64,000 nucleotides of DNA from Candidatus Krumholzibacteriota bacterium (GTDB taxonomy: Bacteria > Krumholzibacteriota > Krumholzibacteriia > JAJRXK01). The stretch is taken from the NCBI GenBank assembly GCA_024276305.1, contig JAJRXK010000090.1, forward strand, positions 42,794 to 106,793. The letters are read 5' to 3'. Made by a program: the position numbers and the translations under genes. The notes under the pieces were generated by a model that made no database searches, was not told where the DNA came from, and worked only from the letters and a program-made list of their open reading frames with translations. The number at the start of each line of letters is the position of its first letter. Positions within the stretch are counted from its first letter, which is position 1. Shown one piece after another: positions 2,983 through 40,958 of the stretch.

Positions 2983-2991
2983 GATTCGGGT

Positions 2992-23104: not shown

Positions 23105-25205
23105 GCAGCACCAACTCGGCAGACACGTGGCAATGGCGAACACCTCGGAGCTTAAGCCCGTCCCGAGATCGTGTCGAGGGGCCGCTCGACGCGGCGCTCG
23201 GCGGAAGAGCTGGAGACTGCTCGGGTTCCTGACGATCCTGCTGACCGCCGGTCCCTTTGCCACCGCCAATGCCGACGAAGAACTCGATTGGGGCTTCGAT
23301 CAACGGGCATTGGACCGGATCGAATTCGAGGGCAATGAGGCTTTCTCGGACCCTCAACTGCGGAAGTTCTTTCTCGTGGACCACGCTCCCTGGTACGACA
23401 TCTTCGGTCGGGATCGCTACCGGACGGACCAGCTGCGTCAGGGCGTCGAAACCCTGCGAAACTTCTATCGCAGCCAGGGATTCCACCGCGCCGAAGTGAG
23501 TCTCGATCACATCGACGAGAGAGATGTTGGCGGCGATGTGGTCGTGGTTCGAGTGGTGGAAGGTCCTCAGACTCGGGTCGAGAGCGTCGACTTCGTCCAC
23601 CCGGATCCGCTCACCGCCGAGGAACTCGGCGCCCGGGTGAAGATTCACCCCGGGGGGCCGGCGCCCGCCGGTCGGGCCGGATTGGGAGGGGACCTCTACC
23701 GCATTCTCGACGCCTATCTCGTCCGGGGGCATCTCGGCGCGAGGGTGCAGGACGAGATCACCTTGGGGGATTCCACGGCCACGATCGTCTACACCATTCG
23801 TGCGGGGCCGGTCTATCAGGTGCGGCAGGTTCTCGTCGAGGGACAGAGAAAGACACGGCGGGAGCACATCGAGCGAGAGCTGAAGATCCACGCGGGGGAT
23901 CCCTTCGATGCCACGAAGATCGCGAGGACCGAAGCGGAGCTCCTGGACTTGGGATTGTTCCGCGACGTCAGCTTCCGGCCTGCGAACTTGGACAGCGCGG
24001 CGGCCCAAGCGGATCTGGTGGTGACGGTCGTCGAAAGAGAGACCGGATTCTACGAGCTCGGCCTGGGGACCGGTGACGAGGAGAGGGTGCGGCTCAGCGC
24101 AGCCTGGGGAGATCGGAATGTCCGAAGGAGTGGACGATCGATCACTGTGCGGGGACGGCTGGCTCTGGTGGGAGAGAATCGTTTCGACAATGTTCGCAGC
24201 GACGAATACAACCTCGACCATCGCGAGGAGATTCTCTACCGCAGTCCGCGTTTTCTGGGGACGCGCTTCGATCTCAATCTCAACACCTTCTTCCGCAAGG
24301 AGTCGAGACCTCGGTCGGGAGTGGAACTCCAACGCTGGGGATTGCTCGCGAACACCGTTCTGTACTCGCGTCCTTCGACCTCGATTGCTCTCGAAGGGGG
24401 CGTCGAGAACGTGCTTCGTCTGCCCCTGGGAAATGTCGCCAGCGCCAGCGACTTCTTTCCCAACCGTCGTGCGCAGACCCGGGCGGTGAGCCTGGTGATC
24501 ACCAGCGACAGCCGGGACGACTTCTTCGACCCCCGCAAGGGCAGCGAGCGACAGTTGCTGTTGCAGCTGGCAGGGGGGCCGTGGTTCGGTGGCGACAACA
24601 CCTTCAACAAGGCTCTCGCGAGCTGGACTCGCTTCGTCCCTCTTCCGAGGGGAGTGACCCTGGGTCTGCGGGCCCAGATGGGATGGGCGGAGGCCTGGTG
24701 GAGTTCGAAGAGCGACGGAGTTCCCTTCGAGGACCGTTTCTTCGCGGGGGGCAACCGCAGTGTGAGGGGATACCAGGAGAATTCCCTGGGCCCGAGAGCG
24801 ACGGTTCAGGATATCCAGGATGTGGCCGACGAGACCTTCTTGGCCAATCGTCCGACCGCGGGAGGGGGTGCGCTTCTGCTCAGCAATGCCGAACTGCGCT
24901 TCCCCGTCCCCCTCTTCGGACGATGGGGGTTTTCGGCGGCGATTTTTCTCGACGGGGGCAATGTCTGGGAGAATTGGGGAAAGGTGTCGCTCCGTCAGTT
25001 CAGCCTGTCGAAGTCGAGGGAAGAGACCACGGTGCGGGACTACCGTTTGAGCTACGGCCTCGGCGTGCTCTACAATACTCTGGTCGGGCCCTTGCGTCTC
25101 GACTACGGCGTGCCACTGCATCGGGCCTCCTTCGAGGATGTCGAGGGCAATCGCGAAGTCGACCCATCCCACCTCTGGCATTTCTCTCTGGGACACGCGT
25201 TCTAG
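23103..25205 (+). CDS. bamA: Outer membrane protein assembly factor BamA (Omp85)
   Basis: Signal peptide ...WRLLGFLTILLTAGPFATANA, POTRA-like repeats, barrel motifs FFAGGNRSVRGYQENSLGP and AIFLDGGNVWE, C-terminal ...HFSLGHAF. Start is uncertain (ATG 23103 or ATG 23133). Confidence 0.85.
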   Translation: MQHQLGRHVAMANTSELKPVPRSCRGAARRGARRKSWRLLGFLTILLTAGPFATANADEELDWGFDQRALDRIEFEGNEAFSDPQLRKFFLVDHAPWYDIFGRDRYRTDQLRQGVETLRNFYRSQGFHRAEVSLDHIDERDVGGDVVVVRVVEGPQTRVESVDFVHPDPLTAEELGARVKIHPGGPAPAGRAGLGGDLYRILDAYLVRGHLGARVQDEITLGDSTATIVYTIRAGPVYQVRQVLVEGQRKTRREHIERELKIHAGDPFDATKIARTEAELLDLGLFRDVSFRPANLDSAAAQADLVVTVVERETGFYELGLGTGDEERVRLSAAWGDRNVRRSGRSITVRGRLALVGENRFDNVRSDEYNLDHREEILYRSPRFLGTRFDLNLNTFFRKESRPRSGVELQRWGLLANTVLYSRPSTSIALEGGVENVLRLPLGNVASASDFFPNRRAQTRAVSLVITSDSRDDFFDPRKGSERQLLLQLAGGPWFGGDNTFNKALASWTRFVPLPRGVTLGLRAQMGWAEAWWSSKSDGVPFEDRFFAGGNRSVRGYQENSLGPRATVQDIQDVADETFLANRPTAGGGALLLSNAELRFPVPLFGRWGFSAAIFLDGGNVWENWGKVSLRQFSLSKSREETTVRDYRLSYGLGVLYNTLVGPLRLDYGVPLHRASFEDVEGNREVDPSHLWHFSLGHAF

Positions 25206-28200
25206 ATGGCATGGATCCGTCGCACCCGGGTGACTCTCCTCGTGGGCCTGCTTCTGGCGCTCGCGACTCTGGCGTGGCTGGTGGCGCATCCGTCCATCTA
25301 CTCCGGACAACTCGGTCGGATCATCACTGACAATCTGCTCCGCAAGTCCGGAGCAGCTCTGACCTTCGAGAGTCTCGACGGGAATCCTCTCCGAAATCTG
25401 ACCTTTCACACCGTCTCGTTGACCCGTTCGTCCGAGGATGGGAGCTTCGTCTATCTCACTGCGGACAGCCTGTCCATCGACTATGACCTGCGATCCTTCT
25501 TCACTCCCTCCCCTCATCTACGCTCCTTGGTTCTGGGCCCGGCCCAACTCCTGGTGCGTCGGCCCGCCGGAGACGATCCGGTACGCGAGGCGTCGGGTGT
25601 CCGCCTCTTCGATGCTTCGGTCCAAGTGGACTATGCCCGTCTCGATCACCTCGAGGTCTCGGTGACCGAATCTTCCGGCGATCAGCTCGACGGCTGGGAG
25701 GACATCCAGTGGGTGGGGTCCGTGCGGACGGGGCTGGATCACAGCGTCCAGATCCACACCGCTCGTCTGGCGGGACGATGGGGAAGAAGGGATCTCACCC
25801 TGCACCGCGCCAGTTTCGACGCGGTGATCCGCGGGCGTGAGGTGCAGGTGAAGACGGCGGCGGTGCGGCTCGACAGCACGCTGGTCGACTTCGATCTGGA
25901 CCTCACCCGGTCGGTGGGCGGGGGCGTGGACCGTTTCGTCCTCGAGGCAAGGGCGGAGGCTTTCTCCCTCAACGAGATCCTCCGGCTGTTGGGGAAGGAT
26001 CCCGGTCCGCGTCTGAGCCTGCAGGGGAAGGCGCGGCTCGACTATTCGAATCGGGTCCTGCGCCTCGGAGGAGCGGTGGAAGGATGGTTGGGAAGCTATC
26101 CCCTCTCGGCGAGGTCCTTCGAGGCCTCGGTGGATTCCACCGGGCTGCACCTCGCCAGGGCGGAGGGGACCTTCCTCTCCGCGGTGGGGGAGGTCCGCGG
26201 GGACCTGGACCTGCAATCGGGACTTCTGAGTCTGGAGGGGGGCTTCTCGGGGGCGGATCTCTCCGATCCCTGGGTCCCGACGGGCCGCCGTTGGCCCGCC
26301 TGTCGCCTCGGTGGCCGGGTGAAGATGGAGCTCAATGCCCGTCCTCCTCTGAGGCTGGACCTCGAGTTGTCCCGGCTTCGCGGTGACATCGTGGGGTTGC
26401 CCGTGGACTCCGCCCGCACCCGACTCCGTTTCCGGGAGGGAGAGGGTCTGGAGATCCTCTCCGGCCGCGCTCGGATTCTGGGCACCGGCTTCGCGATCAC
26501 CGGCTCCGTGGATGCCCTCGACCGCGCCGAAATGGCCATCACCCTCGAGGGATCGGATTCGAAGCCCTGGCAGGATCGCTTCGACTTGCCTCTTCGGGCC
26601 GAGGACTACACCGCGGTGGCTCGCATTTCGGGGGTCGTCGATTCCCTTGCCCTGAGGGTGGGTGGGGTTGCGGCACGTTTGAACGGTCCCTCGGTCCGAA
26701 GCGAGGACAATGCCTTCGTGGTCGACTTGCCGCGGGTCGCCGATCTCAGCCGGGCCCGAGGGCAGTTGCGGGCGGGGCGATCCCGGATCCGGGGCTTCGA
26801 CGGTGGAGAAGTTCGGATCGATTTCGAGAGAGAGGGTGATCGGCTGCGGGTCGAGCCCATGCAGCTCTCCCTGTCGGACTCCGTCCTGCGATGGACGGGA
26901 GCGGTGGATTGGTCGCGGGGCACGCCCACGGTAGAGCTCGACTCCCTCGAATTCAGGACTTCCGCTCAGCACTGGTGGTTGGAGGAGGCATCTCGGGTCG
27001 ATCTCTTTGCCGATGGATTGCGCACCGAGGGTCTTCGGTTGCGCAGCGAGGCGGGCCGGCTGCAGATGGTGGGAAGCGCCCGGATAGATGCGAATCTCAG
27101 CCTCCGTCTCGGCGTCGAAGATGGCGACCTGGCTTCTCTCCACCGCCTGGGACTCCTCACCACCGCCGCTTCGGGCCATTTCGACGCGGATCTGGAATTC
27201 GGGGGGAGCCTGGACCGGCTCCTGGCTCGGGTCCGCGTCGAGGTGGCGGACGCGGAGGTCGGAGGTCGGTCCCTGGGACAGGGTCGCTTCGAGGCCCGCG
27301 TCGAGGGACGAGAGGTGTTTCTGGACCGGGTATCGGTGCGAGGCGGATTGGGGGGACTGGAGGTCGCGGGAAGAGTGACGACCCCGGCGGACGATTGGCC
27401 TCGGACCCTGGTGAACACTCCGCAGGCCTTGGGCGACCTCTGGAAACAGTCCGTGCTGGACCTCAGCGTGGTGACCGACACCCTGGCCACGGCTCCACTC
27501 CTCGACCCCGCGGCGGCGCGGCGGCGATTCGGCCTGGTCTCCTCGGACCTTCAGCTGCGGGGGACTCCGCTGCACCCTCGCCTGGTCGGCGACTTGGACA
27601 TCCGGAGGATCGAGACCTCCGCCCTGGTGGTGCCTCGTCTGCGCGCGCGCATCGAGAGCGACGAGCGGGGAGTTCATGTGGGACAGGGCAGCCTGGGAGT
27701 GGAGAAGCCCTGGCTGGAGGTGGCGGGCTACTTGCCCCTCGACCTCTCGCTGGCGGGCGCGCCGCACTGGAATGCCGCCGACGGCCTGCAGTTGCGGATC
27801 TGGTCGCCGTCGGAGGTCGACTTGGCTCCCCTGATGGATTTCTGGCCTCTGGCGAGAGCCGTCCGTGGTCGCGGCGACTTCGAATTCGTCGCGGTGGGCG
27901 ATCCCAGCGCTCCGCAGCTCTCGGGCACCATCGAATTGCACGATGTGGAGCTGGGTCTGCGGGGTTGGTCGGAGAGCCTGCGCGAGGGTCAGCTGGAAGC
28001 CCATTTCGAAGGCAATCGACTGGTGATCGATCGCCTCGAAGCCCGGGAGGGCGCAAAGGGGAGAGTGCAGGCCCACGGTGAAGTGATTTTTCGGGGGTTG
28101 TTGCCCGATGATGTCTGGGCCGATTTCCGCCTCCACCGGGTGCTCCTGGCCAGCGTCCCCTATTTGCGAGCGGTGGGGAGCAGTGACGGCCTGCGTCTGC

Positions 28201-29096
28201 GTCTCGCACGTCCGAGCCCCGACGCACCTCGAGCTCCTCACCTCACGGGGACGGTGCAGGTGGACAAAGCCATCTACACCGGCGAATTCGCTTCTGGAGG
28301 CGGGGCGGAGTTCTTCGGACCGAATCTGACGCCGCAGTGGACCGCAGATCTGGCCATCCACGCCCGTGAGCAGGTGCGAATCAGCAACCAGAGCGCCGAG
28401 TTGCGGGTGCTCGGAGATGTGGACCTCATTCGCGACACCGCGGGTTTGCGATTCCGGGGAACGGCCGAAATCCCGCGGGGCCAGGTGCCTCTCTTCAACA
28501 ATGATTTCAACATTCTCTCCGGAACCCTCGATTTCAGCCGTCGTCCGGTCGAACCCGAAGTCGACATCACCGCCGAAACCGAGGTTCCGATTTACGATCC
28601 GGGGGAAGGGGGAGGTCGCCAGCTCGAGCGGATCACCATCCATCTCACGGGAACCTTCGCTCAGCCCACGGTGACCTTCACCAGCGAGAATGGCCTGGAC
28701 GAGAACAGCATTCTGCGCTTGCTCGCCGGTTTTGGAGGGCCCAGCGAATCCACCACCGTTTCCTCGGGGGTCTCCGATGTGGGACTGCGCGCGGGATTGA
28801 ACTTTCTCGAGCGGGCTCTGGCGCAGAGAGTGCGAGGGGTGGACACCATCGACATCGAGACCGAAGAAGTCGGAGTGTCCCAAATGCAGTCCACGCGCAT
28901 CGCGGTGGGGAAATACCTGTCGGAGAGCCTCTACCTTCGGTTGAGTCAGGGACTGTCGATCACCGAGCGGGACCTCTTCCTCGAATACCAGATTTCTCGC
29001 CGGCTCCTGTTCACGAGTGAATTGAGGCGCAGACTCCGGGAGAATGGGGCCGAGAACCAATTCAATGTGGACATGAAGTTCCGGGTGAAGTACTGA
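25206..29096 (+). CDS. tamB: TamB / AsmA-like translocation and assembly module protein (DUF490 C-terminus)
   Basis: 1,296 aa. N-terminal TM anchor LLVGLLLALATLAWLV, long beta-rich repetitive body, and DUF490-like C-terminus ...ERDLFLEYQISRRLLFTSEL...FNVDMKFRVKY. ATG directly abuts the bamA stop (TAGATG). Confidence 0.8.
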   Translation: MAWIRRTRVTLLVGLLLALATLAWLVAHPSIYSGQLGRIITDNLLRKSGAALTFESLDGNPLRNLTFHTVSLTRSSEDGSFVYLTADSLSIDYDLRSFFTPSPHLRSLVLGPAQLLVRRPAGDDPVREASGVRLFDASVQVDYARLDHLEVSVTESSGDQLDGWEDIQWVGSVRTGLDHSVQIHTARLAGRWGRRDLTLHRASFDAVIRGREVQVKTAAVRLDSTLVDFDLDLTRSVGGGVDRFVLEARAEAFSLNEILRLLGKDPGPRLSLQGKARLDYSNRVLRLGGAVEGWLGSYPLSARSFEASVDSTGLHLARAEGTFLSAVGEVRGDLDLQSGLLSLEGGFSGADLSDPWVPTGRRWPACRLGGRVKMELNARPPLRLDLELSRLRGDIVGLPVDSARTRLRFREGEGLEILSGRARILGTGFAITGSVDALDRAEMAITLEGSDSKPWQDRFDLPLRAEDYTAVARISGVVDSLALRVGGVAARLNGPSVRSEDNAFVVDLPRVADLSRARGQLRAGRSRIRGFDGGEVRIDFEREGDRLRVEPMQLSLSDSVLRWTGAVDWSRGTPTVELDSLEFRTSAQHWWLEEASRVDLFADGLRTEGLRLRSEAGRLQMVGSARIDANLSLRLGVEDGDLASLHRLGLLTTAASGHFDADLEFGGSLDRLLARVRVEVADAEVGGRSLGQGRFEARVEGREVFLDRVSVRGGLGGLEVAGRVTTPADDWPRTLVNTPQALGDLWKQSVLDLSVVTDTLATAPLLDPAAARRRFGLVSSDLQLRGTPLHPRLVGDLDIRRIETSALVVPRLRARIESDERGVHVGQGSLGVEKPWLEVAGYLPLDLSLAGAPHWNAADGLQLRIWSPSEVDLAPLMDFWPLARAVRGRGDFEFVAVGDPSAPQLSGTIELHDVELGLRGWSESLREGQLEAHFEGNRLVIDRLEAREGAKGRVQAHGEVIFRGLLPDDVWADFRLHRVLLASVPYLRAVGSSDGLRLRLARPSPDAPRAPHLTGTVQVDKAIYTGEFASGGGAEFFGPNLTPQWTADLAIHAREQVRISNQSAELRVLGDVDLIRDTAGLRFRGTAEIPRGQVPLFNNDFNILSGTLDFSRRPVEPEVDITAETEVPIYDPGEGGGRQLERITIHLTGTFAQPTVTFTSENGLDENSILRLLAGFGGPSESTTVSSGVSDVGLRAGLNFLERALAQRVRGVDTIDIETEEVGVSQMQSTRIAVGKYLSESLYLRLSQGLSITERDLFLEYQISRRLLFTSELRRRLRENGAENQFNVDMKFRVKY

Positions 29097-29262
29097 CCCT
29101 CCCCGATGCGGAGGGGTGGAGAGCGACGCGGCATGTGAACAAGAGACCGGAGATTTGACCGGCCCCGGCCGAGTCCAGTATCCTTGTTGCAGATACGGAC
29201 GCTTCCCATCCTCGCCGCTTTCGCGCCCGGTTGCCTGCATCGCCCCCGAGACAGGACTCGTG

Positions 29263-32200
29263 ATGCTCTCGATCCTTTCCGTGCGTTTGCGCCCTGCCGC
29301 TGTGATTGGCGCTCTCTTCGTGCTGGTGTCGATCATGGGCTCGGTCGGCTCCGCCACCGCGCAGTTCTTCGGACGCAACAAGGTCCAGTACGAGAATTTC
29401 GATTGGAAGATTCTCAACACTCCCCACTTCGAGATCTTCTTCTATCCCCAGGAAGAGCAACTCGCGGCAAGGGCGGGAGTGATCGCCGAGGATGCCTATG
29501 CGCGGTTGAGCGGGATTTTCGACCACGATCTGAGCAAGCGGATCCCCTTCGTGCTCTACGCTTCGCCCAACGACTTTCAGCAGACCAACATCAGTGATGG
29601 GCTGATCGGCGAGGGGACCGGCGGGTTCTCCGAGCCCATGCGCAATCGAATGGTACTTCCCTATCCGGGTGACAACGCTGGATTCGTCCACGTGATCAAT
29701 CATGAACTCGTCCATGTCTTCATGTTCGACATCGTTTTCGGGAGCACCCAGTCCGGAGGTGCCCGGGACCGATGGTTCCAGGTTCCGCTGTGGTTCGCGG
29801 AGGGGATGGCCGAATGGTTCAGCAGCGGTTGGGACGATCAGGCCGACATGTGGATGCGCGATGCCACGATCTACGACTGGGTGGTACCCCTGCACCGCAT
29901 CTACGGGGGGTTCCAAGTCTACAAGGAAGGTCAAGCGGCACTCCACTATGTGGCCCAGACCTACGGCGAGCCCAAAGTCGTCGAGGTGTTCAAGGCCCTC
30001 GGACGGACTCGGGACGCGGATCGCGCCGTGGAGCAGACCATCGGTCTGAATACCGAAGAGCTCTCCGAAGCCTGGATGAAGTCACTGAAGCAGGGCTATT
30101 GGCCTCTCTATGGGAACAAGCAGGAGCCCGAAGATCTGGGTCGTCGTCTCACCGACCACTGGAAAGAGGGAGCCTACTTCTTCCAGCAGCCCGCGTTGTC
30201 GCCCGATGGACGCTACATTGCGATGTTCAGCGACTACGACGGATTGGTGAATCTCTACCTGATGGACGCGATCGAGGGAAGAGTGCTCCGCAAGTTGGTG
30301 ACCGGCTATCGGAGCAATCAATTCCTGACTTTTCACAGCTTCGAGAGTTCGATCAGCTTCTCTCCGGACAGCGAGGCGGTGGCGTTCATCGCGAAGAGTG
30401 GGCGAGACGAGCACCTGTTCGTGATCGATGTCGAGTCGGGGAAGGTGCTCCGGGACATCGGGCTGCAGATGGACATCGCGCGAAGCCCGGCCTGGTCTCC
30501 GCAGGATGGGCAGGTGGTCCTGAGTGGAACGCGGAGAGGACAGACCGACCTCTACCTCGTCGACCTCGATCTCGGCGAAGTGAGAGCTCTCACCGATGAC
30601 ACCATCGACGAGCATTCCCCCGCCTGGTATCCCGATGGACGTCGGATTCTCTACAGCGCTCATCCCGCGACCACCGAGGACTTGTCCTTCATTCGCGACG
30701 AGGACGGCACCGTACGCATCGAAGGAGATCCCCTGCGCAAACCGACGCTGATCGAGGCGGATTCCGGATTCGATCTCTATCGTCTGGCGCTGTCCACCGG
30801 AGAAACGGAGATCGCGGTCTCGACTTCGGGAGACGACACCGACCCCTTCGTGGTGAACGACAGCACCATCGTCTTCATTTCGAATACCACCGGAGTTTCG
30901 AATCTGTGCAGCTTCGACGAGAGTTCGGAGCAGGTCCGTCGCCTTTCCGATGTGCTGGGAGGGGTGTTCCAGCCCAGTATGAGCCGCGAGACCGACCGCT
31001 TGGCCTTCACCGTGTTCAACCACGCGGGCTTCGACATCTTTCTGCGCGAGAATTTCACCGAGTTGCTCTCCGCGGAGGGTTTTCCGCTGGAAGCAGAGAC
31101 CGAATTGGTCCAGGCCCCACCGAGGCCCGACCCGGTGGAGGGGTCCGGCGAGGGGACGGCCGGTGAGGCCGGCGCGGTCACTACGGAGCTCGAACCCCTC
31201 GGGAAGCGGGTGGTGGCGGAGGTTGCGCGGGCGGATACCCATCGATCGACCGGAGGGGGCGTGGTGACCGTGGCCACGATGCCGGCCGCCCCCGACTCGG
31301 CTGCCGCCGATTCAGTCCTTGCCCCCAGCCCGGAGGAGTCCGAGGCTCCGGATATGGAAGAGTTGGTCGCCGCGGCGGTGGCGGTCGCGGACAGCGGCGG
31401 AGCCGGAGATCCTTCGATCGGAACCGTCGAACCCTACCGACTGCGCTTCTCGCTCGACCCCTACAGCGCAACCGGCGGGGGTGGGGTCTTCTACGCTCAG
31501 GGCCTGGGTTTCGGCGCGGCTCAGCGGATTTCGCTCAGCGACCTCCTCGGCAACCACCGAATGAGCTTCTTGATCAACTTCTACGGTTCGATCAAGAACA
31601 GTGATCTGGCGGCCAGCTATACCTACCTGAAGCGGCGCGTGAACGTCTCGGGGGGAGTGTTTCACTACCGGAACATCCTCAACAGCAACTTCACCAGCAT
31701 CGGCGAGGTCTTCGACAACAATCGCCTGTTCACCGAACGCAACTACGGGTTGTTCGGCCTCGCGAGCTATCCCTTCTCGCAGTTCAATCGACTCGATTTC
31801 GAGCTTCAGGCCTTCGTGAGCGACAAGAGCTTCTTCGAATACAATCGCTTCACCGGCTTCTACGAGCAGGTGGGGGAACGGCAGAGAGATACGCTGGTCC
31901 AGCCCTCCTTGACCTATGTCCACGATTCCACTTTCTACGGGCAGTACGGTCCAGTGACCGGCAGCCGGTGGCAAGTTTCCTTCTCGCCCGCCATCCCGGT
32001 CGGCGGCGAGCAGGGTGTCGATCGCACTACGAGCTATGTGGACTACCGGCGCTACTTCCGGCTCTGGGACCGCAATGGCTTGGCGCTTCGGTTCATCGGG
32101 GCGCAGAGCGTGGGCGGTCAACCCCGCAAGTTCGTCATCGGAGGAGCCCAGACCCTTCGGGGTTGGGATATCTTCGACTTCGAGCGAGTGAATGCCGACG

Positions 32201-32553
32201 GTAGTCCACGCCACCCCAATCTGGTGGGGAGCAAGATGTTCATGTTGAATCTGGAATACCGTTTTCCCTTCGTGGACGCGCTCATTCTGGGATGGCCGGG
32301 GCGTTTCGGGATTGGAGGGATTTCGGGCGCGGTTTTCATGGACACCGGGGCAGCCTACGACGGGGCCTTCCGATTCTTCAGTCGGACCGAGAGCGGGACG
32401 CGGCGACTCCAGGACTTGAATGCGGATTTCGGCTTTGGTATAAGGGCGAATGTCGGTTGGTTGCCACTTCGCTTCGATTGGGCGTGGAAGACCGATCTCG
32501 CCGAGACCAGCAACGATATTCGCTATTCCTTTTCGATCGGCCCGTCCTTCTAG
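29263..32553 (+). CDS. Multidomain outer-membrane protein: signal peptide, HExxH gluzincin-like metallopeptidase-like domain, TolB-like PD40 beta-propeller, long low-complexity linker, Omp85-family (bacterial surface antigen) beta-barrel
   Basis: Signal MLSILSVRLRPAAVIGALFVLVSIMGSVGSATAQ. HINHELVHVFMFD followed by LWFAEGMAEWF (HExxH with a downstream Glu). PD40 repeats (SPDGRYIAMFSDYDGLVNLYLMD, SPDSEAVAFIAKSGRDEHLFVID, SPAWSPQDGQVVLSG...TDLYLVDL, SPAWYPDGRRILYSA). Gly/Ala/Pro/Glu-rich linker. C-terminal barrel with GGAQTLRGWDIFDF, GAVFMDTGAAYD, terminal ...RYSFSIGPSF. The track start (29116) is trimmed to the Met that begins the signal peptide. Confidence 0.8.
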   Translation: MLSILSVRLRPAAVIGALFVLVSIMGSVGSATAQFFGRNKVQYENFDWKILNTPHFEIFFYPQEEQLAARAGVIAEDAYARLSGIFDHDLSKRIPFVLYASPNDFQQTNISDGLIGEGTGGFSEPMRNRMVLPYPGDNAGFVHVINHELVHVFMFDIVFGSTQSGGARDRWFQVPLWFAEGMAEWFSSGWDDQADMWMRDATIYDWVVPLHRIYGGFQVYKEGQAALHYVAQTYGEPKVVEVFKALGRTRDADRAVEQTIGLNTEELSEAWMKSLKQGYWPLYGNKQEPEDLGRRLTDHWKEGAYFFQQPALSPDGRYIAMFSDYDGLVNLYLMDAIEGRVLRKLVTGYRSNQFLTFHSFESSISFSPDSEAVAFIAKSGRDEHLFVIDVESGKVLRDIGLQMDIARSPAWSPQDGQVVLSGTRRGQTDLYLVDLDLGEVRALTDDTIDEHSPAWYPDGRRILYSAHPATTEDLSFIRDEDGTVRIEGDPLRKPTLIEADSGFDLYRLALSTGETEIAVSTSGDDTDPFVVNDSTIVFISNTTGVSNLCSFDESSEQVRRLSDVLGGVFQPSMSRETDRLAFTVFNHAGFDIFLRENFTELLSAEGFPLEAETELVQAPPRPDPVEGSGEGTAGEAGAVTTELEPLGKRVVAEVARADTHRSTGGGVVTVATMPAAPDSAAADSVLAPSPEESEAPDMEELVAAAVAVADSGGAGDPSIGTVEPYRLRFSLDPYSATGGGGVFYAQGLGFGAAQRISLSDLLGNHRMSFLINFYGSIKNSDLAASYTYLKRRVNVSGGVFHYRNILNSNFTSIGEVFDNNRLFTERNYGLFGLASYPFSQFNRLDFELQAFVSDKSFFEYNRFTGFYEQVGERQRDTLVQPSLTYVHDSTFYGQYGPVTGSRWQVSFSPAIPVGGEQGVDRTTSYVDYRRYFRLWDRNGLALRFIGAQSVGGQPRKFVIGGAQTLRGWDIFDFERVNADGSPRHPNLVGSKMFMLNLEYRFPFVDALILGWPGRFGIGGISGAVFMDTGAAYDGAFRFFSRTESGTRRLQDLNADFGFGIRANVGWLPLRFDWAWKTDLAETSNDIRYSFSIGPSF

Positions 32554-32606
32554 CTTCTCTTCGGATTCGGTGAGAGCTCGATTGCGCTGGGGCCTGGGGA
32601 GTCTTC

Positions 32607-34943
32607 ATGCTCGAGGGCCTCAATTCACCACAGCGCCAGGCCGTCTCCCATCCCGGCGGACCGCTCCTGGTGATCGCCGGCGCGGGCAGCGGCAAGACCC
32701 GCGTTCTCACCACCAGAATCGCGTGGTTGATTCGGGAGTGCGGCGTCGCACCGGAAAGCATTCTCGCCTTCACCTTCACGAACAAGGCCGCTCGAGAGAT
32801 GCGGCAACGCGTCGATCAGATGGTACCCGAGGCCCAGGGGAGATGTTGGATCGGCACCTTCCACTCTACCGGGGTCCGAATTCTGCGCAGCGAGGGACAT
32901 CGTCTGGGCTACGATCGCTTCTTCACGATCTACGATGCCGACGATTCGCGGGCCCTGCTCAAGAAGATCGTGCAGGACCTCGAACTCGACACCAAACAGT
33001 ATTCGCCTCGCCAGCTCGGATCGGAGATCAGCGGGCACAAGAACCACTTTCGATCTCCCGAACAGGTCATGGCGACATCGATCACTCCTCGGGATCAGAA
33101 GGTGGCCGAGGTCTACGCCGAATACGGTCGCCGGCTGCGCGAGAATGGCGCGATGGACTTCGACGATCTCATCGCCAAGACGGTCGAACTCTTCGAGGAC
33201 CATCGAGAGGTGCAGGAGCGTTACAGCCAGCGTTTCGAGCACGTGCTCGTGGACGAGTTCCAGGATACCAATCCCTTGCAGCTGGTCATGGTGCGAGCGC
33301 TGAGCGCGCGCCACGGAAATCTGTGTGCGGTGGGCGATGACGATCAGTCGATCTACTCGTGGCGGGGCGCGACGGTGGAGAACATGCTGGGATTCGAGGA
33401 ATACTTTCCCGGATCCACCTTGGTTCGACTGGAACAGAATTACCGCTCCACCTCCCTCATTCTCGAAGCGGCGAATGCCGTCATCGCTCACAATCGTCGA
33501 CGCAAGGGCAAGACTCTCTGGAGTGACCGCTCGGGGGGGGCGCCCATCGAGCTGTGGTGGGCCGAAGACGAGCACGAAGAGGGACGCAAGATTCGGGATC
33601 GGATTGGACGACTCCTCGCCGAGACCGACGCGCGACGCAGGGACATCGTGGTTCTCTATCGCACCAACGCTCAGAGCCGTGCGGTCGAAGATGCCCTGCG
33701 GCGAGAATCGATTCCCTATCAGATCGTGGGAGGCACTCGCTTCTACGAGCGGCGCGAGGTCCGGGATCTGTTGGCCTACCTCAAGTGTGTACAGAATCCG
33801 GCCGACAGTGTCAGCTTCGCCCGGATTCTGAACGTTCCCAAGCGGGGCATCGGCAAGACCAGTGCTTCGCGCTTCTTCGAATTGGCGCAGCGGATGGGCA
33901 CGGTGTCGGATGCCCTCTCCGACCGGGGGCGTCTGCTGAGTTCCTGTGGCAAAGCGGCGGCCGGCCGATTGGCGGCCTTCGGACAGTTGCTTCAGTCCTT
34001 GCGGCGTCTGGCCGAGAACGCCGATGCCGCCGCGGTATTGCGGCAGGTGATCGAGGCGACGAAGTACGAGAACTACCTGCGGGAAGACGATCCCACGACC
34101 GCCGACGACCGCCTCGAGAATGTCTACGAGCTCGTGAATGCGGCCGAGGAGTTCTCGGTCGAGAGCGATGAGCCGGGGCTCGGTCCCTTTCTCGAGAGCG
34201 TGGCGCTCCTGGCCGAAGTGGACAAGATGAGTGACGAGACGGACCAGGTGACTCTGATGACCGTCCACAATGCCAAGGGTCTCGAGTTCCCCTACGTTTT
34301 CATCGCGGGCTGCGAGGAGGGACTGCTTCCCCACGCCTCGTCCCTCGAGGACGATGATCAGCTGGAGGAAGAGCGGCGCTTGTTCTACGTTGCCCTCACC
34401 CGGGCCGAGGAAGCGGTATTTCTGACCGCTTCTGCCATGCGCCGCCGCTTTGGTAGTAGTGAGCCGGCGGCGGCCAGTCGTTTCGTGGGCGAGATTCCCG
34501 AAGAGCTCGTGGCCGAGATGGGGGGGCTGGCTTTCGGATCGCGATTCCAAGCGCCTCGAAGTCTCGGAGAGCGTCGGTGGAATTCGATCTCTACCTCTGC
34601 CCCGGCCAAGAGGCCGCGGAGATCGCGGGATCAGGGGGTATCGGCGGACGCCCTCGCCGACGCTCAGGCTTTCCTCCGGAGCCGGGCGCGATCCAAGGCT
34701 CGGGCTCGAAAGGAAGTTGCGGACCACGGCTTCGAAGACCACGATCTGACTCAGGAGGAACTCTGCTATCGGGTGGGGGCCAGGGTGGAGCACGAGCTGC
34801 TGGGGGAGGGGGTGATCGAGGAGATCGAGGGCGTTGGAGATCTCTTGCGTCTCACCGTGAGTTTCGGTGAACGTGGGCGGAAGCGGATTCTTGCCCGCTA
34901 CGCTCGTCTGCGCCTCCTCGACACGGAAGCTGGAGCTCAGTAG
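32607..34943 (+). CDS. pcrA: ATP-dependent DNA helicase, UvrD/PcrA/Rep family
   Basis: Walker A AGAGSGKTRVLTTRIAWL and helicase motifs (FTNKAAREM, VLVDEFQDTN, VGDDDQSIYSWRGA, ...VHNAKGLEF). 778 aa. Assignment between pcrA and uvrD cannot be made from sequence alone. Confidence 0.88.
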   Translation: MLEGLNSPQRQAVSHPGGPLLVIAGAGSGKTRVLTTRIAWLIRECGVAPESILAFTFTNKAAREMRQRVDQMVPEAQGRCWIGTFHSTGVRILRSEGHRLGYDRFFTIYDADDSRALLKKIVQDLELDTKQYSPRQLGSEISGHKNHFRSPEQVMATSITPRDQKVAEVYAEYGRRLRENGAMDFDDLIAKTVELFEDHREVQERYSQRFEHVLVDEFQDTNPLQLVMVRALSARHGNLCAVGDDDQSIYSWRGATVENMLGFEEYFPGSTLVRLEQNYRSTSLILEAANAVIAHNRRRKGKTLWSDRSGGAPIELWWAEDEHEEGRKIRDRIGRLLAETDARRRDIVVLYRTNAQSRAVEDALRRESIPYQIVGGTRFYERREVRDLLAYLKCVQNPADSVSFARILNVPKRGIGKTSASRFFELAQRMGTVSDALSDRGRLLSSCGKAAAGRLAAFGQLLQSLRRLAENADAAAVLRQVIEATKYENYLREDDPTTADDRLENVYELVNAAEEFSVESDEPGLGPFLESVALLAEVDKMSDETDQVTLMTVHNAKGLEFPYVFIAGCEEGLLPHASSLEDDDQLEEERRLFYVALTRAEEAVFLTASAMRRRFGSSEPAAASRFVGEIPEELVAEMGGLAFGSRFQAPRSLGERRWNSISTSAPAKRPRRSRDQGVSADALADAQAFLRSRARSKARARKEVADHGFEDHDLTQEELCYRVGARVEHELLGEGVIEEIEGVGDLLRLTVSFGERGRKRILARYARLRLLDTEAGAQ

Positions 34944-34963
34944 CCTCAACCAGGAGCGAAGCC

Positions 34964-35539
34964 ATGGAAACGGTTCGACCCCCTTGCCGCCATCGATCCG
35001 GAGGACCCGAGGTGGTCGGTCGATGGTGCTGCGTGGTCGTCGTCGTGGTTTCGGTCCTGGCGATGGTGGGGCCGGCATGGCCCGCTACCTCTCGCCCAGG
35101 CTCGCCTCCCGAGGGCGGGCGCTTCCTGAGCCAGCAGGACAGCCTGGGTTACGACGACTATCGCGAACTCGATCACGACACCCAGCTCGAACGACGCGAG
35201 TCGGCGAAGCGCTGGGCCAAACGGGTTCGCGAGACCCGACGCCGCGCTGCGCAACAGGTGGAGAGCTCGGCTGCGGTTCGGATCTATCGCCAAGCCCTCG
35301 ACGAGGCGGCGACGGTGGTCGGACTCTGTCCCTATTTCCCCGAGGGTTGGCTCCTCTACGCCGACGTCCTCAACCACCTGGGATACTATGTCTCGGCCGA
35401 ACTCTGCCTCGACCACGCGGAGAGCACTCTGGCCTATGAACGCAACTCCAAGCATCGACGTCAGCTCGTGGGAGATCTGCACGGACAGCGTGCGGTGATC
35501 GCTTACAACCGTGGCGATTGGGCGACGAGTGCGGCGTAA
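34964..35539 (+). CDS. TPR-repeat protein, N-terminal segment (membrane-anchored); terminates at an in-frame TAA that interrupts a TPR motif
   Basis: N-terminal hydrophobic anchor CCVVVVVVSVLAMVGPAWPA and TPR-like helices. Same reading frame as ORF 35591..36577, which resumes 17 codons later. See findings. Confidence 0.55.
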   Translation: METVRPPCRHRSGGPEVVGRWCCVVVVVVSVLAMVGPAWPATSRPGSPPEGGRFLSQQDSLGYDDYRELDHDTQLERRESAKRWAKRVRETRRRAAQQVESSAAVRIYRQALDEAATVVGLCPYFPEGWLLYADVLNHLGYYVSAELCLDHAESTLAYERNSKHRRQLVGDLHGQRAVIAYNRGDWATSAA

Positions 35540-35590
35540 TCCGAGCAGGCGCAGGAGGCGCGGCCCAACGACTCGAAGTGGACGCTGCTC

Positions 35591-36577
35591 TTGGCCCGGT
35601 CGCTGAATGCTCTGGGCCGCTACGACGAGGCCCGCAAGATCCTCGATGAGATCGATCCGGACCGCCCGGCCAAGGCCACCGCGCTCAGCGTGTTGGGTCT
35701 GATCGAGATGTCCGCGGGAGACCTGGATGCGGCCCAGAAAGCCTTCGACGCGGCCGCGAGACGAGGTATGCGGAGTGCGGTGTTCCACAATGATCGGGGG
35801 CGTCTGGCCCTCCTCCGCGAGGACTACGATCGAGCGGAGGAAGAATTCGAGAAGGCCATCGCGATGGCTCCTTCCTTCATCGAGGCTCGCAGCAATCTGG
35901 CGGTGGCTCATCGGCGGGCGGGTCGGCTCGACGAGGCTCAGGAGGTGTTGGAATCGCTCATCGACAATCGGCCGAACTACGGTGCGGCCCATTTCAATCT
36001 GGCCGAGGTGTTGCGAGAGGAATTGACCGATCTCGATGCACCCGCACGCGAGGCGAAGGCCCGCATGGCTCTGAACCACTATTCCCGGGCATTGGAGCTG
36101 GGGTTCTCCCCCGAGCAGGTGATCGAACGCCGAGCGAGTCTCGCGGCGGCGGTGGACGATCTGGACCTCGCGGAGGAGGACTTTCTCAAGATGGCCGAGG
36201 ATCCGGAAATCAGCGGCGATGTGCTCCATCGTTTGGGTCGAGTGAAGCGGGATCAGGGACGGCCGGATATCGCGCAGAAGCTCTTCGAGATGGCGATCGA
36301 ACGCGGAGCCGACGGGGCCGTGCTCTACAGCGATTACGGCGGGATTCTGCTCGCGGACTCGGATTTCGAAGGAGCACGTCGGGCCTTCGAGGCAGCCCTC
36401 GAACGAAATCCCGACCTGTTGATCACCCGGGTGAATCTGAGCATCGCATGGATGGAGTTGGGAGACGACCTTCGGGCGGCCAAGGTTCTGCGGCCGGCAT
36501 TGCGGGTTGCTCCCGACCATCCGGTCGTACGCGCGCAGCGCATTCAGCTCGAGAAGTTGGGGCAGAGTTTTGACTGA
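35591..36577 (+). CDS. TPR-repeat protein, C-terminal segment (probably the same gene as 34964..35539)
   Basis: Multiple TPRs (ALGRYDEARKIL, AAHFNLAEVL, ...). The listed TTG start gives an atypical N-terminus. The frame is open back to the TAA at 35537-35539. Confidence 0.55.
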   Translation: MARSLNALGRYDEARKILDEIDPDRPAKATALSVLGLIEMSAGDLDAAQKAFDAAARRGMRSAVFHNDRGRLALLREDYDRAEEEFEKAIAMAPSFIEARSNLAVAHRRAGRLDEAQEVLESLIDNRPNYGAAHFNLAEVLREELTDLDAPAREAKARMALNHYSRALELGFSPEQVIERRASLAAAVDDLDLAEEDFLKMAEDPEISGDVLHRLGRVKRDQGRPDIAQKLFEMAIERGADGAVLYSDYGGILLADSDFEGARRAFEAALERNPDLLITRVNLSIAWMELGDDLRAAKVLRPALRVAPDHPVVRAQRIQLEKLGQSFD

Positions 36578-36890
36578 ATCCTCCGAGGCCCTTCTCCAAG
36601 AAGCCCGTCGCCTCTGCGCGCTGGCGGGCTTGCGCGGTGACCCCCAGGAACTCCGCCTCGCCATGGAAGAGACCGAGCGGGTCGAGGAGATCGGGGAGGT
36701 CCTGGAGCGGTGTCTTTCGGAGGGCGAGGACTGCGATGGGGATGAGGTGGAGGCCGACTGCGGGCCGATGCCCCTCGCGGACGACTCTCCCGGGGAGGGG
36801 GCTGCGGGCAATGATGACTGGGTCGAGACGCAGGCCCGAGCATCCCTGAATCCCCTCCGAGTTCCCACGGTCGAATTCCGAAGTGAGTGA
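36570..36890 (+). CDS. gatC: Aspartyl/glutamyl-tRNA(Asn/Gln) amidotransferase subunit C (probable)
   Basis: Small acidic helical protein immediately upstream of gatA and overlapping its GTG start, as expected for gatCAB. Start is uncertain (TTG 36570, or ATG 36507 overlapping the TPR gene). Similarity is weak; the call rests mainly on synteny. Confidence 0.5.
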   Translation: MTESSEALLQEARRLCALAGLRGDPQELRLAMEETERVEEIGEVLERCLSEGEDCDGDEVEADCGPMPLADDSPGEGAAGNDDWVETQARASLNPLRVPTVEFRSE

Positions 36891-38271
36891 GCTGAACTCG
36901 ATCTCGCTCTCCGAGCTCTGTCGTCTGCGCGACGAGGGGGTGGTGAGGGATGAGGAGATTCTCGATTCCTTCGAATCCCGATATCGCCAACACGAGCCGC
37001 GGCTCCACGCTTTCGTCCATCGCTACCGCAGTGGAAGTGCGGAGGGAGGAATCCTCCGGTCGATTCCCTATGCCACCAAGGCCAACCTCGCGGTCCGAGG
37101 ACAGCCGCAGGACTGCGCGAGTCGGTTGCTTCGGGGCTACCGTGCGCCCTACGACGCGACGGTGACCCGCCGGCTGCGAGAGGCGGGTGCGGTGGTGGTC
37201 GGTTCCACGAATATGGACGAGTTCGGGATGGGCAGCACCACCGAGTATTCCTGCTACGGTCCCACCCGGCATCCCTTGGATCCGGAGCGAAGCCCCGGCG
37301 GATCTTCGGGGGGCGCGGCGGCGGCGGTGGCCACGGGAATGGTCGCCTTTGCCCTGGGAACCGACACTGGGGGCTCAGTGCGCCAACCGGCCGCGCACTG
37401 TGGAGTGTTCGGGCTGCGACCGACCTGGGGAAGGATCTCTCGGTGGGGACTGACCGCCTTTGCGAGCAGTATGGACCAGGTGGGGATTCTGACCCGGAGG
37501 GCGGAGGACCTTCCCGTGGTCCTGGGCCTCCTGACGGGGCGGGATGCCTTCGATGCGACCACCCACCAAGTTCCGACCCGAGAGGTGGGAAGGGGGGATC
37601 TTCGGGGGCTGAGGGTCGCCTTCGATCCCGCCGGCTTGGGTTTCGCGGAGGCAGAAGTGGCGGTGGCTTTCGAGGGATTCGTCGCCGACCTTCGGAGCGC
37701 GGGAGCGGAGGTCCGAGAATTGAGCCTGCCGGCCAGCACCGCGGCCCTGGAGTGCTACCTGCTCCTGAGCTCGGTCGAGGCCGCGAGCAATCTGGCCCGC
37801 TTCGACGGGACGGTCTACGGTCGGCGCCGAGGCGGCGATCACTACGAGGAGATGGTTCGGAGGACTCGAAGCGCTGGATTCGGAGAGGAGGTGAAGCGTC
37901 GGATTCTGCGGGGCACGCTGGTCTTGGCGGCCGGAGAGTCGGGAGCGGAGCTCGGGCGAGCGCGGCGGTTGCGCGCGCGGATTCGCCGAGAACAGATCGA
38001 CGCCCTCCGCGGACACGATGCGCTCCTGATGCCCACCACTCCCGCCGGGCCTCCTCGGATCGGAGCGCCACGAGGAGAGTCGAAGCAGACCACCGATCCG
38101 GATCGTTTCACGGCACCGGCCAGTCTGGCGGGACTGCCAGCCCTCGCGGCGCCGGCGGGGCGGGCCAGGAACGGATTGCCGTGGTCGGTGCAGTGGGTGG
38201 GCGCGCCGGATGCCGACGAGACCCTGATCGCCATCGCCATGGCCTGCGAAGCCGAAGGGTTGGGAAGGTGA
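36883..38271 (+). CDS. gatA: Glutamyl-tRNA(Gln) amidotransferase subunit A (amidase signature family)
   Basis: Amidase signature GGSSGGAAAAVATGMVAFALGTDTGGSVRQPAAHCGVFGLRPTWGRISRWG; 462 aa. Confidence 0.9.
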   Translation: MSELNSISLSELCRLRDEGVVRDEEILDSFESRYRQHEPRLHAFVHRYRSGSAEGGILRSIPYATKANLAVRGQPQDCASRLLRGYRAPYDATVTRRLREAGAVVVGSTNMDEFGMGSTTEYSCYGPTRHPLDPERSPGGSSGGAAAAVATGMVAFALGTDTGGSVRQPAAHCGVFGLRPTWGRISRWGLTAFASSMDQVGILTRRAEDLPVVLGLLTGRDAFDATTHQVPTREVGRGDLRGLRVAFDPAGLGFAEAEVAVAFEGFVADLRSAGAEVRELSLPASTAALECYLLLSSVEAASNLARFDGTVYGRRRGGDHYEEMVRRTRSAGFGEEVKRRILRGTLVLAAGESGAELGRARRLRARIRREQIDALRGHDALLMPTTPAGPPRIGAPRGESKQTTDPDRFTAPASLAGLPALAAPAGRARNGLPWSVQWVGAPDADETLIAIAMACEAEGLGR

Positions 38272-39683
38272 ATTCGCCTCCACTGGTGATCGGACTCGAA
38301 GTCCACGTCCAACTTCGGACCCAGACCAAGCTCTTCTCTCGGTCGCTGCACTGCTACGGCGCGCCGAGGAACACTCTCGTCGACCCTCATTGCCTGGGTT
38401 TGCCGGGCACTCTTCCGATTCTCCAGGAGCGGGCCGTAGAGCTCGCGCTGCGCCTGGCCGCCGCCCTCGGGATGGAGATCTCGGAGTGCTCCCGCTTCGA
38501 TCGCAAGCACTACTTCTATCCGGATCTCCCCAAGAACTACCAGATCACGCAGCAGAGCCATCCGCTGGCCCGAGGTGGAGCGCTGCGGCTCTCGGTCGAC
38601 CAGGGCTCCTCTGCGGTTGCGATCCAGCAGCTCCATTTGGAGGAAGATGCCGCACGCTGTCTGCATCAGGAGCAGGAGACTCTCTTGGACTTCAACCGGG
38701 CGGGGGCCCCGCTGGTCGAAGTGGTCACCGATCCGGTGATCACCGATGCACTCCAGGCGGGAGAGTTTCTCCGGGAGATGCGCCGTCTGGTGCGGTGGAT
38801 CGGGGTCAGCGATGGCAACATGAACGAGGGGAGCCTGCGCTGCGACGCCAACATCTCTTTGGACGCCGAGGGCTTTCGAGGAGTGGTGGTGGAGGTCAAG
38901 AACCTCAACTCCATCGCGCAGGTGGTGGAGGCTCTGGACTTCGAGGCGGCGCGATTGCGGCGGGCTCACCGGGAGGGGCGGTGTCCACGGGCTCAGACGC
39001 GGTTCTGGTCGCCCTCCTCTCGATCCACGGGGGTTCTGCGGGAGAAGGAGTCGAGGGCGGATTACCGATACTTGCCCGATCCGGACCTTCCCCCGCTGCG
39101 GATCTCGCCCGCCCGCATCGGTCGGGCGGTGGCGGCCATCGGCGAGTTGCCCCTCGATTGCTGCCTCCGCTTCCAGGACCAGTTCGGGATCTCGGAGGAG
39201 CATGCGGTGCAGCTCACCCAGAACCGGATGGAGGCCGAGTACTTCGAACAGGTCGCAAGAAGGGTGGGAGGTCCGCTGGCGGCGTCCTGGATCCTGTCGG
39301 AGTTGCGATACCACCTGCATCGGACGGATTGTACGATCTCCGACTCGCCGGTCTCCGCCGAGGACTTGGCGCAGCTCCTCTCGGCGGCAGAGAAAGTCTC
39401 GGCGCCTCGGTCCTTGATCCGTGGGCAGCTGAGCCGCATCTTCGATGGGGAGTCGACGGTCGCAGGCTTCGGGGCCCACTGTCGCCGACATCGGCGGCCG
39501 GAAGAGGAGGTTCGGGAGACTCTCGATCGGATTCTGAAGGAGAATGCGGCCCTGGTGGTGGACTACCGAAGGGGCAAGCACGGGGTACTCGACCATCTGA
39601 TGGGGCTTGCGTTCCGCGATCTGGGAGACGGTGTGGACGCCCGGCAATTGCGGCAATGGTGCCAGGAGGAGTTGGAAGGATGA
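38268..39683 (+). CDS. gatB: Aspartyl/glutamyl-tRNA(Asn/Gln) amidotransferase subunit B
   Basis: LVIGLEVHVQL..TKLFS, KHYFYPDLPKNYQITQ, YRYLPDPDLPP are GatB motifs. GTG start overlaps the gatA stop (GTGA); the track N-extension is rejected. Confidence 0.9.
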   Translation: MNSPPLVIGLEVHVQLRTQTKLFSRSLHCYGAPRNTLVDPHCLGLPGTLPILQERAVELALRLAAALGMEISECSRFDRKHYFYPDLPKNYQITQQSHPLARGGALRLSVDQGSSAVAIQQLHLEEDAARCLHQEQETLLDFNRAGAPLVEVVTDPVITDALQAGEFLREMRRLVRWIGVSDGNMNEGSLRCDANISLDAEGFRGVVVEVKNLNSIAQVVEALDFEAARLRRAHREGRCPRAQTRFWSPSSRSTGVLREKESRADYRYLPDPDLPPLRISPARIGRAVAAIGELPLDCCLRFQDQFGISEEHAVQLTQNRMEAEYFEQVARRVGGPLAASWILSELRYHLHRTDCTISDSPVSAEDLAQLLSAAEKVSAPRSLIRGQLSRIFDGESTVAGFGAHCRRHRRPEEEVRETLDRILKENAALVVDYRRGKHGVLDHLMGLAFRDLGDGVDARQLRQWCQEELEG

Positions 39684-40123: not shown

Positions 40124-40276
40124 GCATCGGGCTCGGACTTCGAATGCGGATCGAGGCTCTTGACATTCGCGACCGAGTTGCGATACACCTGCCTTTCGCC
40201 TCCCTCCCTCGCGGACGGGAGGCATTGTTGTCTTCGATCCGCGCTTTCTGCCTCCCGCAGGAAGGGATCGAATTCC

Positions 40277-40933
40277 ATGACCGAAACACGCACTTCACTC
40301 CTCGCCGGATTCATCGCGCTGAGCCTGGCGTGGGGCCTGGTGATCGCCGCGGCCGGCCCGGCCCAGGCAGCTCTGCGCATCAGCGAGATCCTCTCGGCTC
40401 CCGCCTCGGACTGGGACGGCAATGGCAGCGTCGAGTTCAAGGGAGACGAGTGGGTGGAGATTCTCAATACCGGACCCAATCCCGAGGTCCTCGACGGTGT
40501 CTACCTGAAGGATGGGACCGGCGATGCCTATCACTACGGTTTCAGTGGAACCCTGGCTCCCGGTGAGGTCTTGGTGGTCTACGGATCGCAGGCGATGGTC
40601 TGGCAAGCTGCGAACGGAGCCGGGACCAGTGGCCTGAGCCTAAACAACGGAGGAGACCGGGTGGAGCTCTGGCGGGACACCGACTCCCCCCGGATCTTCC
40701 AGGCCCTCGATGTGGTTCCGGTGCCCGCCCATGCCGCGGGGGCCGAACGCTCCTTGGGTTGGTCGGAGACCAGTTCGAAGTGGTTGCTCCACGACGGGGC
40801 CAATCCCTACACGGGGTCGGCGCTGCCCGCTGGAACCGGGTGTGCACCCAGCCCCGGGGTCCGGAATTCCTGTGATGGGTTGGTGCCCGTCGAGACCACG
40901 GACTGGAGCACTCTGAAGTCTCTCTACCGCTAG
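40277..40933 (+). CDS. Secreted lamin-tail-domain (LTD) protein
   Basis: Signal MTETRTSLLAGFIALSLAWGLVIAAAGPAQA. LTD-like core ISEIL...EWVEILNTGPNPEVLDGVYLKD...Y.F.GTLAPGEVLVV. ATG at 40277 is preceded by GAAGGGA. Confidence 0.65.
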   Translation: MTETRTSLLAGFIALSLAWGLVIAAAGPAQAALRISEILSAPASDWDGNGSVEFKGDEWVEILNTGPNPEVLDGVYLKDGTGDAYHYGFSGTLAPGEVLVVYGSQAMVWQAANGAGTSGLSLNNGGDRVELWRDTDSPRIFQALDVVPVPAHAAGAERSLGWSETSSKWLLHDGANPYTGSALPAGTGCAPSPGVRNSCDGLVPVETTDWSTLKSLYR

Positions 40934-40958
40934 GCAGAGCGACGTTCGATTTCTCCAT

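Follow-up and report, generated by a model that had tools for sequence, protein, structure and literature searches.

A TPR gene upstream of gatCAB interrupted by a single in-frame TAA in a Candidatus Krumholzibacteriota contig

Two open reading frames (ORFs) that share a frame and are parted by a TAA codon lie directly upstream of the gatCAB genes in a Candidatus Krumholzibacteriota bacterium, which raises the question of whether they are one gene or two and, if one, how a stop codon came to stand inside it. We addressed this question in a stretch of 64,000 nucleotides (assembly GCA_024276305.1, contig JAJRXK010000090.1, positions 42,794 to 106,793 of the forward strand), hereafter referred to as the window, whose first letter is position 1 of all coordinates given here. 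The first ORF (34964..35539) starts with ATG, encodes 191 residues and ends at the TAA at 35537-35539, while the second (35591..36577) starts with TTG, encodes 328 residues and ends with the TGA at 36575-36577. Translated through, 34964..36577 on the plus strand forms one frame of 537 codons in which this TAA is the sole internal stop, and the peptide around it reads AYNRGDWATSAA, stop, SEQAQEARPNDSKWTLLLARSL. The same coordinates, shared frame and peptide had been given in an initial annotation of the locus, and all of them proved correct upon ORF listing and translation. In public gene calls the 191- and 328-residue halves stand as separate entries that share one NCBI contig (116,399 bp); the NCBI protein P0002 is 100% identical to the product of the 328-residue ORF.

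One gene or two

We searched the read-through product, with an X in place of the stop, against 5.8 billion proteins and found 18 orthologs of 497-583 amino acids, which are 35-69% identical to the query and colinear with it. Query coverage was 88-96% for 17 of these, and the remaining one is a fragment. In the resulting alignment of 19 sequences, all 18 orthologs cross the column of the stop uninterrupted; none of the 18 is split, has an independent start or carries a stop at codon 192, which leaves the window copy as the only one of the 19 family members with an internal stop. Because 18 colinear homologs span the stop without interruption, the two ORFs are not chance neighbours: 34964..36577 is one ancestral tetratricopeptide repeat (TPR) gene of ~520-537 codons with a nonsense codon. 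This agrees with the initial annotation, which had claimed a single TPR gene of ~537 codons, and the contrary outcome, orthologs present as two genes with a start near 35591, was seen in none of the 18. Less general was its expectation of Gln, Glu or Lys at the interrupted codon. In the two closest relatives, L001 and L002, the counterpart of codon 192 is indeed GAG (Glu), but the more distant orthologs have Ser, Ala, His, Pro or Glu, and the column as a whole reads E, E, A, S, S, E, S, S, H, S, S, S, H, S, P, S, E, A.

The window gene belongs, by colinear similarity, by retention of 63/63 invariant residues and by gene position, to a TPR orthogroup that lies next to uvrD and gatCAB in Krumholzibacteriia-like metagenome-assembled genomes (MAGs; members P0001 and P0003-P0019). 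It shares with these members 35-69% colinear identity, the same neighbourhood and the 63 invariant residues, and differs from them by its internal stop. The orthogroup is lineage-restricted and uncharacterised, with ~19 members found, and the best-named relative is from a Candidatus Krumholzibacteriia MAG. The TPR protein appears to be specific to Krumholzibacteriia-like bacteria and is probably exported. Residues 18-34 resemble a signal peptide of the Sec type or a signal anchor, so that the TPR array would probably be extracytoplasmic; the N-termini of the orthologs are short and end in A-x-A-like motifs. Translation may begin at GTG 35012 instead of ATG 34964, and a Shine-Dalgarno-like motif precedes each of the two candidate starts (Table 1).

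The fold of the read-through protein likewise passes through the stop. Many TPR families (TPR_19, TPR_2, TPR_16, TPR_14, TPR_1 and others) matched the downstream part above the curated Pfam cut-offs, while the 191-residue part alone had no match to a Pfam TPR family; in the read-through sequence, the repeat matches ANAPC3 (residues 177-229) and TPR_CcmH_CycH (residues 180-264) cross the stop. Modelled by AlphaFold2 from the alignment of 19 sequences, the read-through protein reached a mean predicted local distance difference test score (pLDDT) of 91.4 and a predicted template modelling score (pTM) of 0.76, with a pLDDT of 96 for residues 191-200. The model is a continuous TPR solenoid of ~27 helices from about residue 63 to 531. 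Its helices are paired from about residue 100 to 531 and its best fold matches are TPR superhelices, as is characteristic of the TPR clan. Residue 192 falls between the helical stretches 186-190 and 194-199, which form helix B of one repeat, and the stop takes position 23 of that repeat, with G15-D16-Y17 ... A20 ... A27 ... P32 corresponding to G184-D185-W186 ... S189 ... A196 ... P201. Repeat register and model therefore both place the TAA inside a TPR helix pair, as had initially been proposed, and, judged by the model, a product ending at residue 191 would lack about two thirds of the solenoid.

Among solved structures, the protein resembles the TPR domain of OGT (PDB 1w3b; Foldseek E = 2.6e-12 to 1w3b_A), which is likewise an all-helical solenoid of 34-residue repeats, and a designed consensus TPR of 8 repeats (PDB 8chy; TM-score 0.84, normalised to the target), at a sequence identity to solved TPR structures of only ~20%. 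In contrast to OGT and the consensus TPR, it has no catalytic domain and carries an N-terminal hydrophobic export or anchor segment together with a non-TPR motif. This motif, GRF....DSLGYD.YR.L....QL.RRE.A.RW, is conserved at residues ~50-120 (35105-35330) and has no Pfam match; in the model, its region forms helices packed ahead of the first TPR.

Age and origin of the stop

We then asked how long the gene could have carried its stop. The window copy keeps every one of the 63 positions at which the orthologs are invariant, 13 of them before and 50 after the stop, a retention that equals that of the best intact members in a leave-one-out control. The ratio of nonsynonymous to synonymous substitution rates (dN/dS; Nei-Gojobori) relative to L001 was 0.185 upstream and 0.161 downstream of the stop, with dS saturated. 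Since dN to the outgroup L002 was 0.388 for the window copy and 0.362 for L001, the window lineage is not accelerated. Neither a second stop nor a frameshift nor an indel relative to L001 or L002 was found in the TPR gene. The gene thus has the premature stop of a nonsense pseudogene, at codon 192 of ~537, and shows neither the relaxed selection nor the further decay by which pseudogenes are also recognised. In the 17 codons that follow the stop, GC content by codon position is 0.65/0.47/1.00, and all 17 third positions are G or C (GC3 17/17), compared with a short-intergenic GC of 0.63 (P ~4e-4). Because coding periodicity is kept and the helix at the stop is only a mild outlier of the family, the sequence past the stop was translated in the TPR frame until very recently, or still is. 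If the gene is a pseudogene, its sequence points to a very young one.

The stop coincides with the helix of the gene that is most diverged from the closest relative. A stretch of ~20 residues that holds the stop is only 25-30% identical to L001, compared with 66% overall, and ranks 1-2 of 473 windows in divergence from that relative; L001 and L002 are 60% identical to each other across the same stretch. At 35520-35595 (residues ~187-211), hydrophobic helix positions are changed to E, Q, R or P. The helix is variable family-wide, and the window copy is third lowest of 19 (z = -1.6). Two candidate explanations for this pattern were rejected. An ancient fission with a neutrally drifting spacer was ruled out by the GC3 of 17/17, by the missing indel and by the fact that the helix is no family outlier, and a local compensated frameshift was ruled out because the in-frame codons match L001 and L002 at equal length while the other frames misfit.

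We give about an even chance to the view that the TAA is a genuine, very recent nonsense allele in the sampled population, that is, either a young pseudogene or a loss-of-function variant that segregates. In the cell, TAA would then stand at codon 192, where the nearest relatives have GAG (Glu), and ribosomes would release an N-terminal fragment of 191 (or 175) residues, made up of the signal or anchor segment and the first helices, while the other ~345 residues of the solenoid would be missing. The premature stop, ~1 kb upstream, would probably also lower the coupled translation of gatC, an effect to be expected because the gatC-like ORF overlaps the regular stop of the TPR gene and its TTG start lacks a Shine-Dalgarno motif. 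The presence of the TAA in cells and not just in the consensus is a step that we infer, as are protein export, translational coupling and polarity on gatC.

In favour of a genuine allele, the lesion is not systematic. Other same-frame gene junctions tested with Pfam all part two complete, unrelated genes, the neighbouring genes tested are full length, and, of the genes checked elsewhere in the 64 kb, none has a second lesion. The public record, in which the two halves are called separately on one NCBI contig, is a further point in its favour. An assembly rich in consensus errors is disfavoured because further lesions would be expected among the ~50 genes of the window. We rejected the idea of an error-riddled assembly, as in-frame stops with coding-like flanks, when checked by Pfam, all separated complete, unrelated genes, and the neighbouring genes are intact. 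Spurious internal stops have been tied to generally poor assemblies and low coverage (Cooley & Wright 2024; PMC11017572). Several points nevertheless weigh against a genuine allele. A lesion without accompanying decay is exactly how an error would look, and a real null would probably be costly if gatC depends on coupling and GatCAB is essential, which lowers its prior somewhat. The change to TAA from the GAG of the relatives needs two substitutions. Moreover, no second copy from the same species was found: a degenerate DNA pattern that left the stop codon open as NNN was unmatched in metagenome contigs, and a protein-guided scan of metagenome contigs yielded only a 28% relative.

The most serious competitor, with a sizeable minority share of the probability, is a sequencing or assembly artefact, in which the gene is intact and a single consensus base is wrong (e.g. 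GAA, CAA, AAA, TCA or TAC read as TAA). Such an error could stem from low coverage or from a minor-variant path in the metagenome assembly. It would fit the pristine state of the coding sequence before and after the stop (63/63 invariant positions, dN/dS ~0.17 and GC3 17/17 in the codons just past the stop) as well as the tight packing of the operon, in which the gene directly precedes gatCAB and a real null would probably be polar because the gatC-like start without a Shine-Dalgarno motif overlaps the TPR stop. It would also be in line with a study that traced many internal-stop 'pseudogenes' of public assemblies to errors of assembly, above all at low coverage, and found artefacts of this kind to be common in public genomes (Cooley & Wright 2024; PMC11017572). 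On the other hand, no other gene checked in the window has a second lesion, and nothing marks the assembly as error-prone. Substitution errors are rare in short-read consensus sequences, and young real pseudogenes, which look the same, are reportedly common in bacteria; both points speak against an artefact.

A different possibility is that the TAA is real but tolerated, since a functional protein would still be made, either by re-initiation at TTG 35591, which would give a two-piece TPR protein and keep the coupling to gatC, or by low-level readthrough of UAA. We consider this unlikely; if it were true, the divergent helix at the stop would mark a nascent domain boundary. A functional split, in which translation stops at the TAA and re-initiates at TTG 35591 or nearby, so that an exported N-terminal piece and a 328-residue TPR piece are both under selection, is decidedly unlikely. 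Consistent with it, the downstream 328 codons are fully conserved (50/50 invariant positions, dN/dS 0.16), divergence from the nearest relative is highest in the stretch at and just past the stop, and an in-frame TTG lies 51 nt past the stop; terminating bacterial ribosomes are said to be able to re-initiate at nearby starts. The split is, however, shared by none of the 18 orthologs. The 22 nt ahead of TTG 35591 lack a Shine-Dalgarno-like motif, whereas many genes of the window have one (roughly half of the gene starts inspected), and the AGGAGG at 35553-35558, 32 nt upstream of this TTG, is too distant to serve it. The 51-nt spacer has not been non-coding for long, because it shows full coding periodicity and no indel. 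Further evidence against a split is that the helix at the stop varies across the whole family, as described above, that the C-terminal piece would have no export signal and that a TPR helix would be broken.

The least probable explanation, which we regard as highly improbable, is programmed recoding, in which the TAA is decoded through readthrough, a suppressor tRNA or a changed code to give full-length protein. The intact downstream reading frame is the one observation in its favour. In the window, TAA ends three other complete genes, an IF-2B-like gene (11258), dxr (21205) and an ABC ATPase gene (50888), whose domain matches reach the profile ends; on this basis, a change of the genetic code with reassignment of TAA was rejected. 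By a crude count, stop usage in the window is TGA 27, TAG 14 and TAA 4. Also at odds with recoding, only one of the ~50 window genes is interrupted and no ortholog has a stop at codon 192. The stop is followed by T, and in E. coli UAA-U reportedly terminates translation more efficiently than any other signal, a measure that may not apply to this phylum. No stable RNA structure was found at or after the stop in the 136 nt folded (z = +1.49), which are less structured than shuffled controls (186/200 shuffles fold at least as well). Finally, the window, as distinct from the rest of the genome, has no suppressor tRNA and contains only tRNA-Met and tRNA-Val. Of the three options named in the initial annotation, readthrough is accordingly the least likely, and pseudogenisation and sequencing or assembly error lead; for explanations other than those discussed here we leave very little room.

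A conserved gene interrupted by an internal stop, as seen here, is an ordinary feature of a kind already known. Like internal-stop bacterial pseudogenes, whether real or artefactual, it combines a single premature stop in a conserved ORF with intact orthologs and two adjacent same-frame ORFs. It sits at the youngest end of that class, showing neither a second lesion nor relaxed selection, and is otherwise indistinguishable from it. For annotation, the two 'hypothetical' ORFs are best joined as a single interrupted TPR gene, and the TAA site is a handy place to test, at a single base, how good the consensus of this MAG is. If the allele is real, it would be a natural knockout of an uncharacterised, lineage-specific and putatively exported TPR protein, as well as a natural test of the coupling of a gatC-like ORF (TTG start, no Shine-Dalgarno motif, 8-nt overlap) to its upstream gene.

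The probable operon and its gatC-like ORF

The gene order uvrD - TPR - gatC - gatA - gatB is common to the window and the relatives L001, L002, L042 and L043/L044. Because L045 has uvrD-TPR without gatCAB at this site, the link of the TPR gene to gatCAB is positional and not obligatory. In L001, L002, L042, L043 and L045, uvrD holds the same position as in the window. The TPR gene is probably co-transcribed with uvrD and gatCAB, as initially suggested for gatCAB; this is supported by the gene overlap, by the order shared in four relatives and by the finding that no promoter-like or terminator-like site was detected at 32000-40200.

The 3' end of the TPR gene had been said to overlap the probable gatC start, and this is the case: TTG 36570 overlaps TGA 36575-36577 in the string TTGACTGA, an arrangement that is identical in the closest relative L001. 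A motif scan revealed no Shine-Dalgarno-like motif before TTG 36570. Because of this and the overlap with the TPR stop, the sequence suggests that the gatC-like ORF is translationally coupled to the TPR gene. The ORF itself (36570..36890) had no Pfam or NCBIfam match to a GatC profile (PF02686/TIGR00135) and no BLASTP similarity to the same-position ORFs in L042 or L002. Of its positional counterparts, those in L042, L043 and L044 match PF02686 (Pfam GatC), the one in L002 matches TIGR00135 weakly (1.7e-7), and a five-sequence alignment of the ORFs at the gatC position displays a weak shared pattern. Position and this weak alignment point to GatC, and we refer to the ORF as gatC-like. It is extremely diverged and contains an acidic, Cys-containing insert, SEGEDCDGDEVEADCG.

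A small conserved ORF of 147 codons (39680-40123, plus strand) follows gatB with an overlapping start. It has no Pfam match, and the ORF at its position in L043 has a weak DUF5683 match. Just past it, at 40203-40222, lies the only terminator-like hairpin in 32000-41000, which probably marks the end of the operon.

Other features of the window

The features of the locus and its surroundings are listed in Table 1. Upstream of uvrD, three large genes of the outer-membrane-biogenesis type stand in a row on the plus strand (23103-32553). The unusual Peptidase_MA_2/PD40/Omp85 fusion among them also occurs in L002, L042 and L043/L044, and the TamB-like gene also in L002. Downstream of the LTD-domain gene follow meaB and then a beta-oxidation cluster, all intact.

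Table 1. Coordinates of the interrupted TPR gene, its parts and the surrounding genes in the window
Feature	Position	Strand	Basis or remark
Whole interrupted TPR gene	34964..36577	+	537 codons from ATG 34964, or 521 from GTG 35012; orthologs, AlphaFold model
Candidate translation starts	34952..35014	+	AGGAG 34952-34956 with ATG 34964; GGAGGA 35000-35005 with GTG 35012; motif scan
N-terminal hydrophobic segment, residues 18-34	35015..35065	+	Low-confidence helix in model; equivalent hydrophobic N-termini in orthologs
Premature in-frame TAA, codon 192, next base T (UAA-U)	35537..35539	+	Orthologous codon GAG (Glu) in L001 and L002
17 codons from stop to first in-frame start, coding-like	35540..35590	+	GC periodicity; no indel relative to orthologs
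Downstream 328-codon ORF, C-terminal ~21 helices of the solenoid	35591..36577	+	Separate protein in public gene calls
uvrD/pcrA-type helicase gene, intact, directly upstream	32607..34943	+	Full-length Pfam UvrD-helicase, UvrD_C and PcrA_UvrD tudor matches
Small gatC-like ORF, 106 aa, TTG start	36570..36890	+	Position and weak alignment; 8-nt overlap with TPR stop
gatA (amidase subunit), intact	36883..38271	+	TIGR00132, E = 1.4e-125
gatB, intact	38268..39683	+	Full-length GatB_N and GatB_Yqey matches
Omp85/POTRA gene, 700 aa, intact	23103..25205	+	
TamB-like gene, 1296 aa, intact	25206..29096	+	ATG abuts the preceding TAG without spacer
Fusion of Peptidase_MA_2, PD40 repeats and C-terminal Omp85 barrel, 1145 aa, intact, unusual	29116..32553	+	
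LTD-domain gene, intact	40160..40933		

Two long antisense ORFs on the minus strand, 34946-38071 (1041 aa) and 32625-35078 (817 aa), lie opposite uvrD, the TPR gene and gatA. Their pattern of GC by codon position is not coding-like; apparently by-products of the GC content (64%), they could mislead gene callers. An Rfam search of the window returned only RNase P RNA and the two tRNAs. The tRNA genes, tRNA-Met (CAU) and tRNA-Val (CAC), lie 10 nt apart at 2911-3068 on the plus strand, and the RNase P RNA at 4808-5186 on the same strand is a full-length bacterial class A molecule (297 bits). Further downstream on the plus strand, neither of the ORFs 57188..58120 (310 aa) and 58294..58641 (115 aa) matches a Pfam family; the latter and 58069..58275 are short same-frame ORFs that end in TAG in succession.

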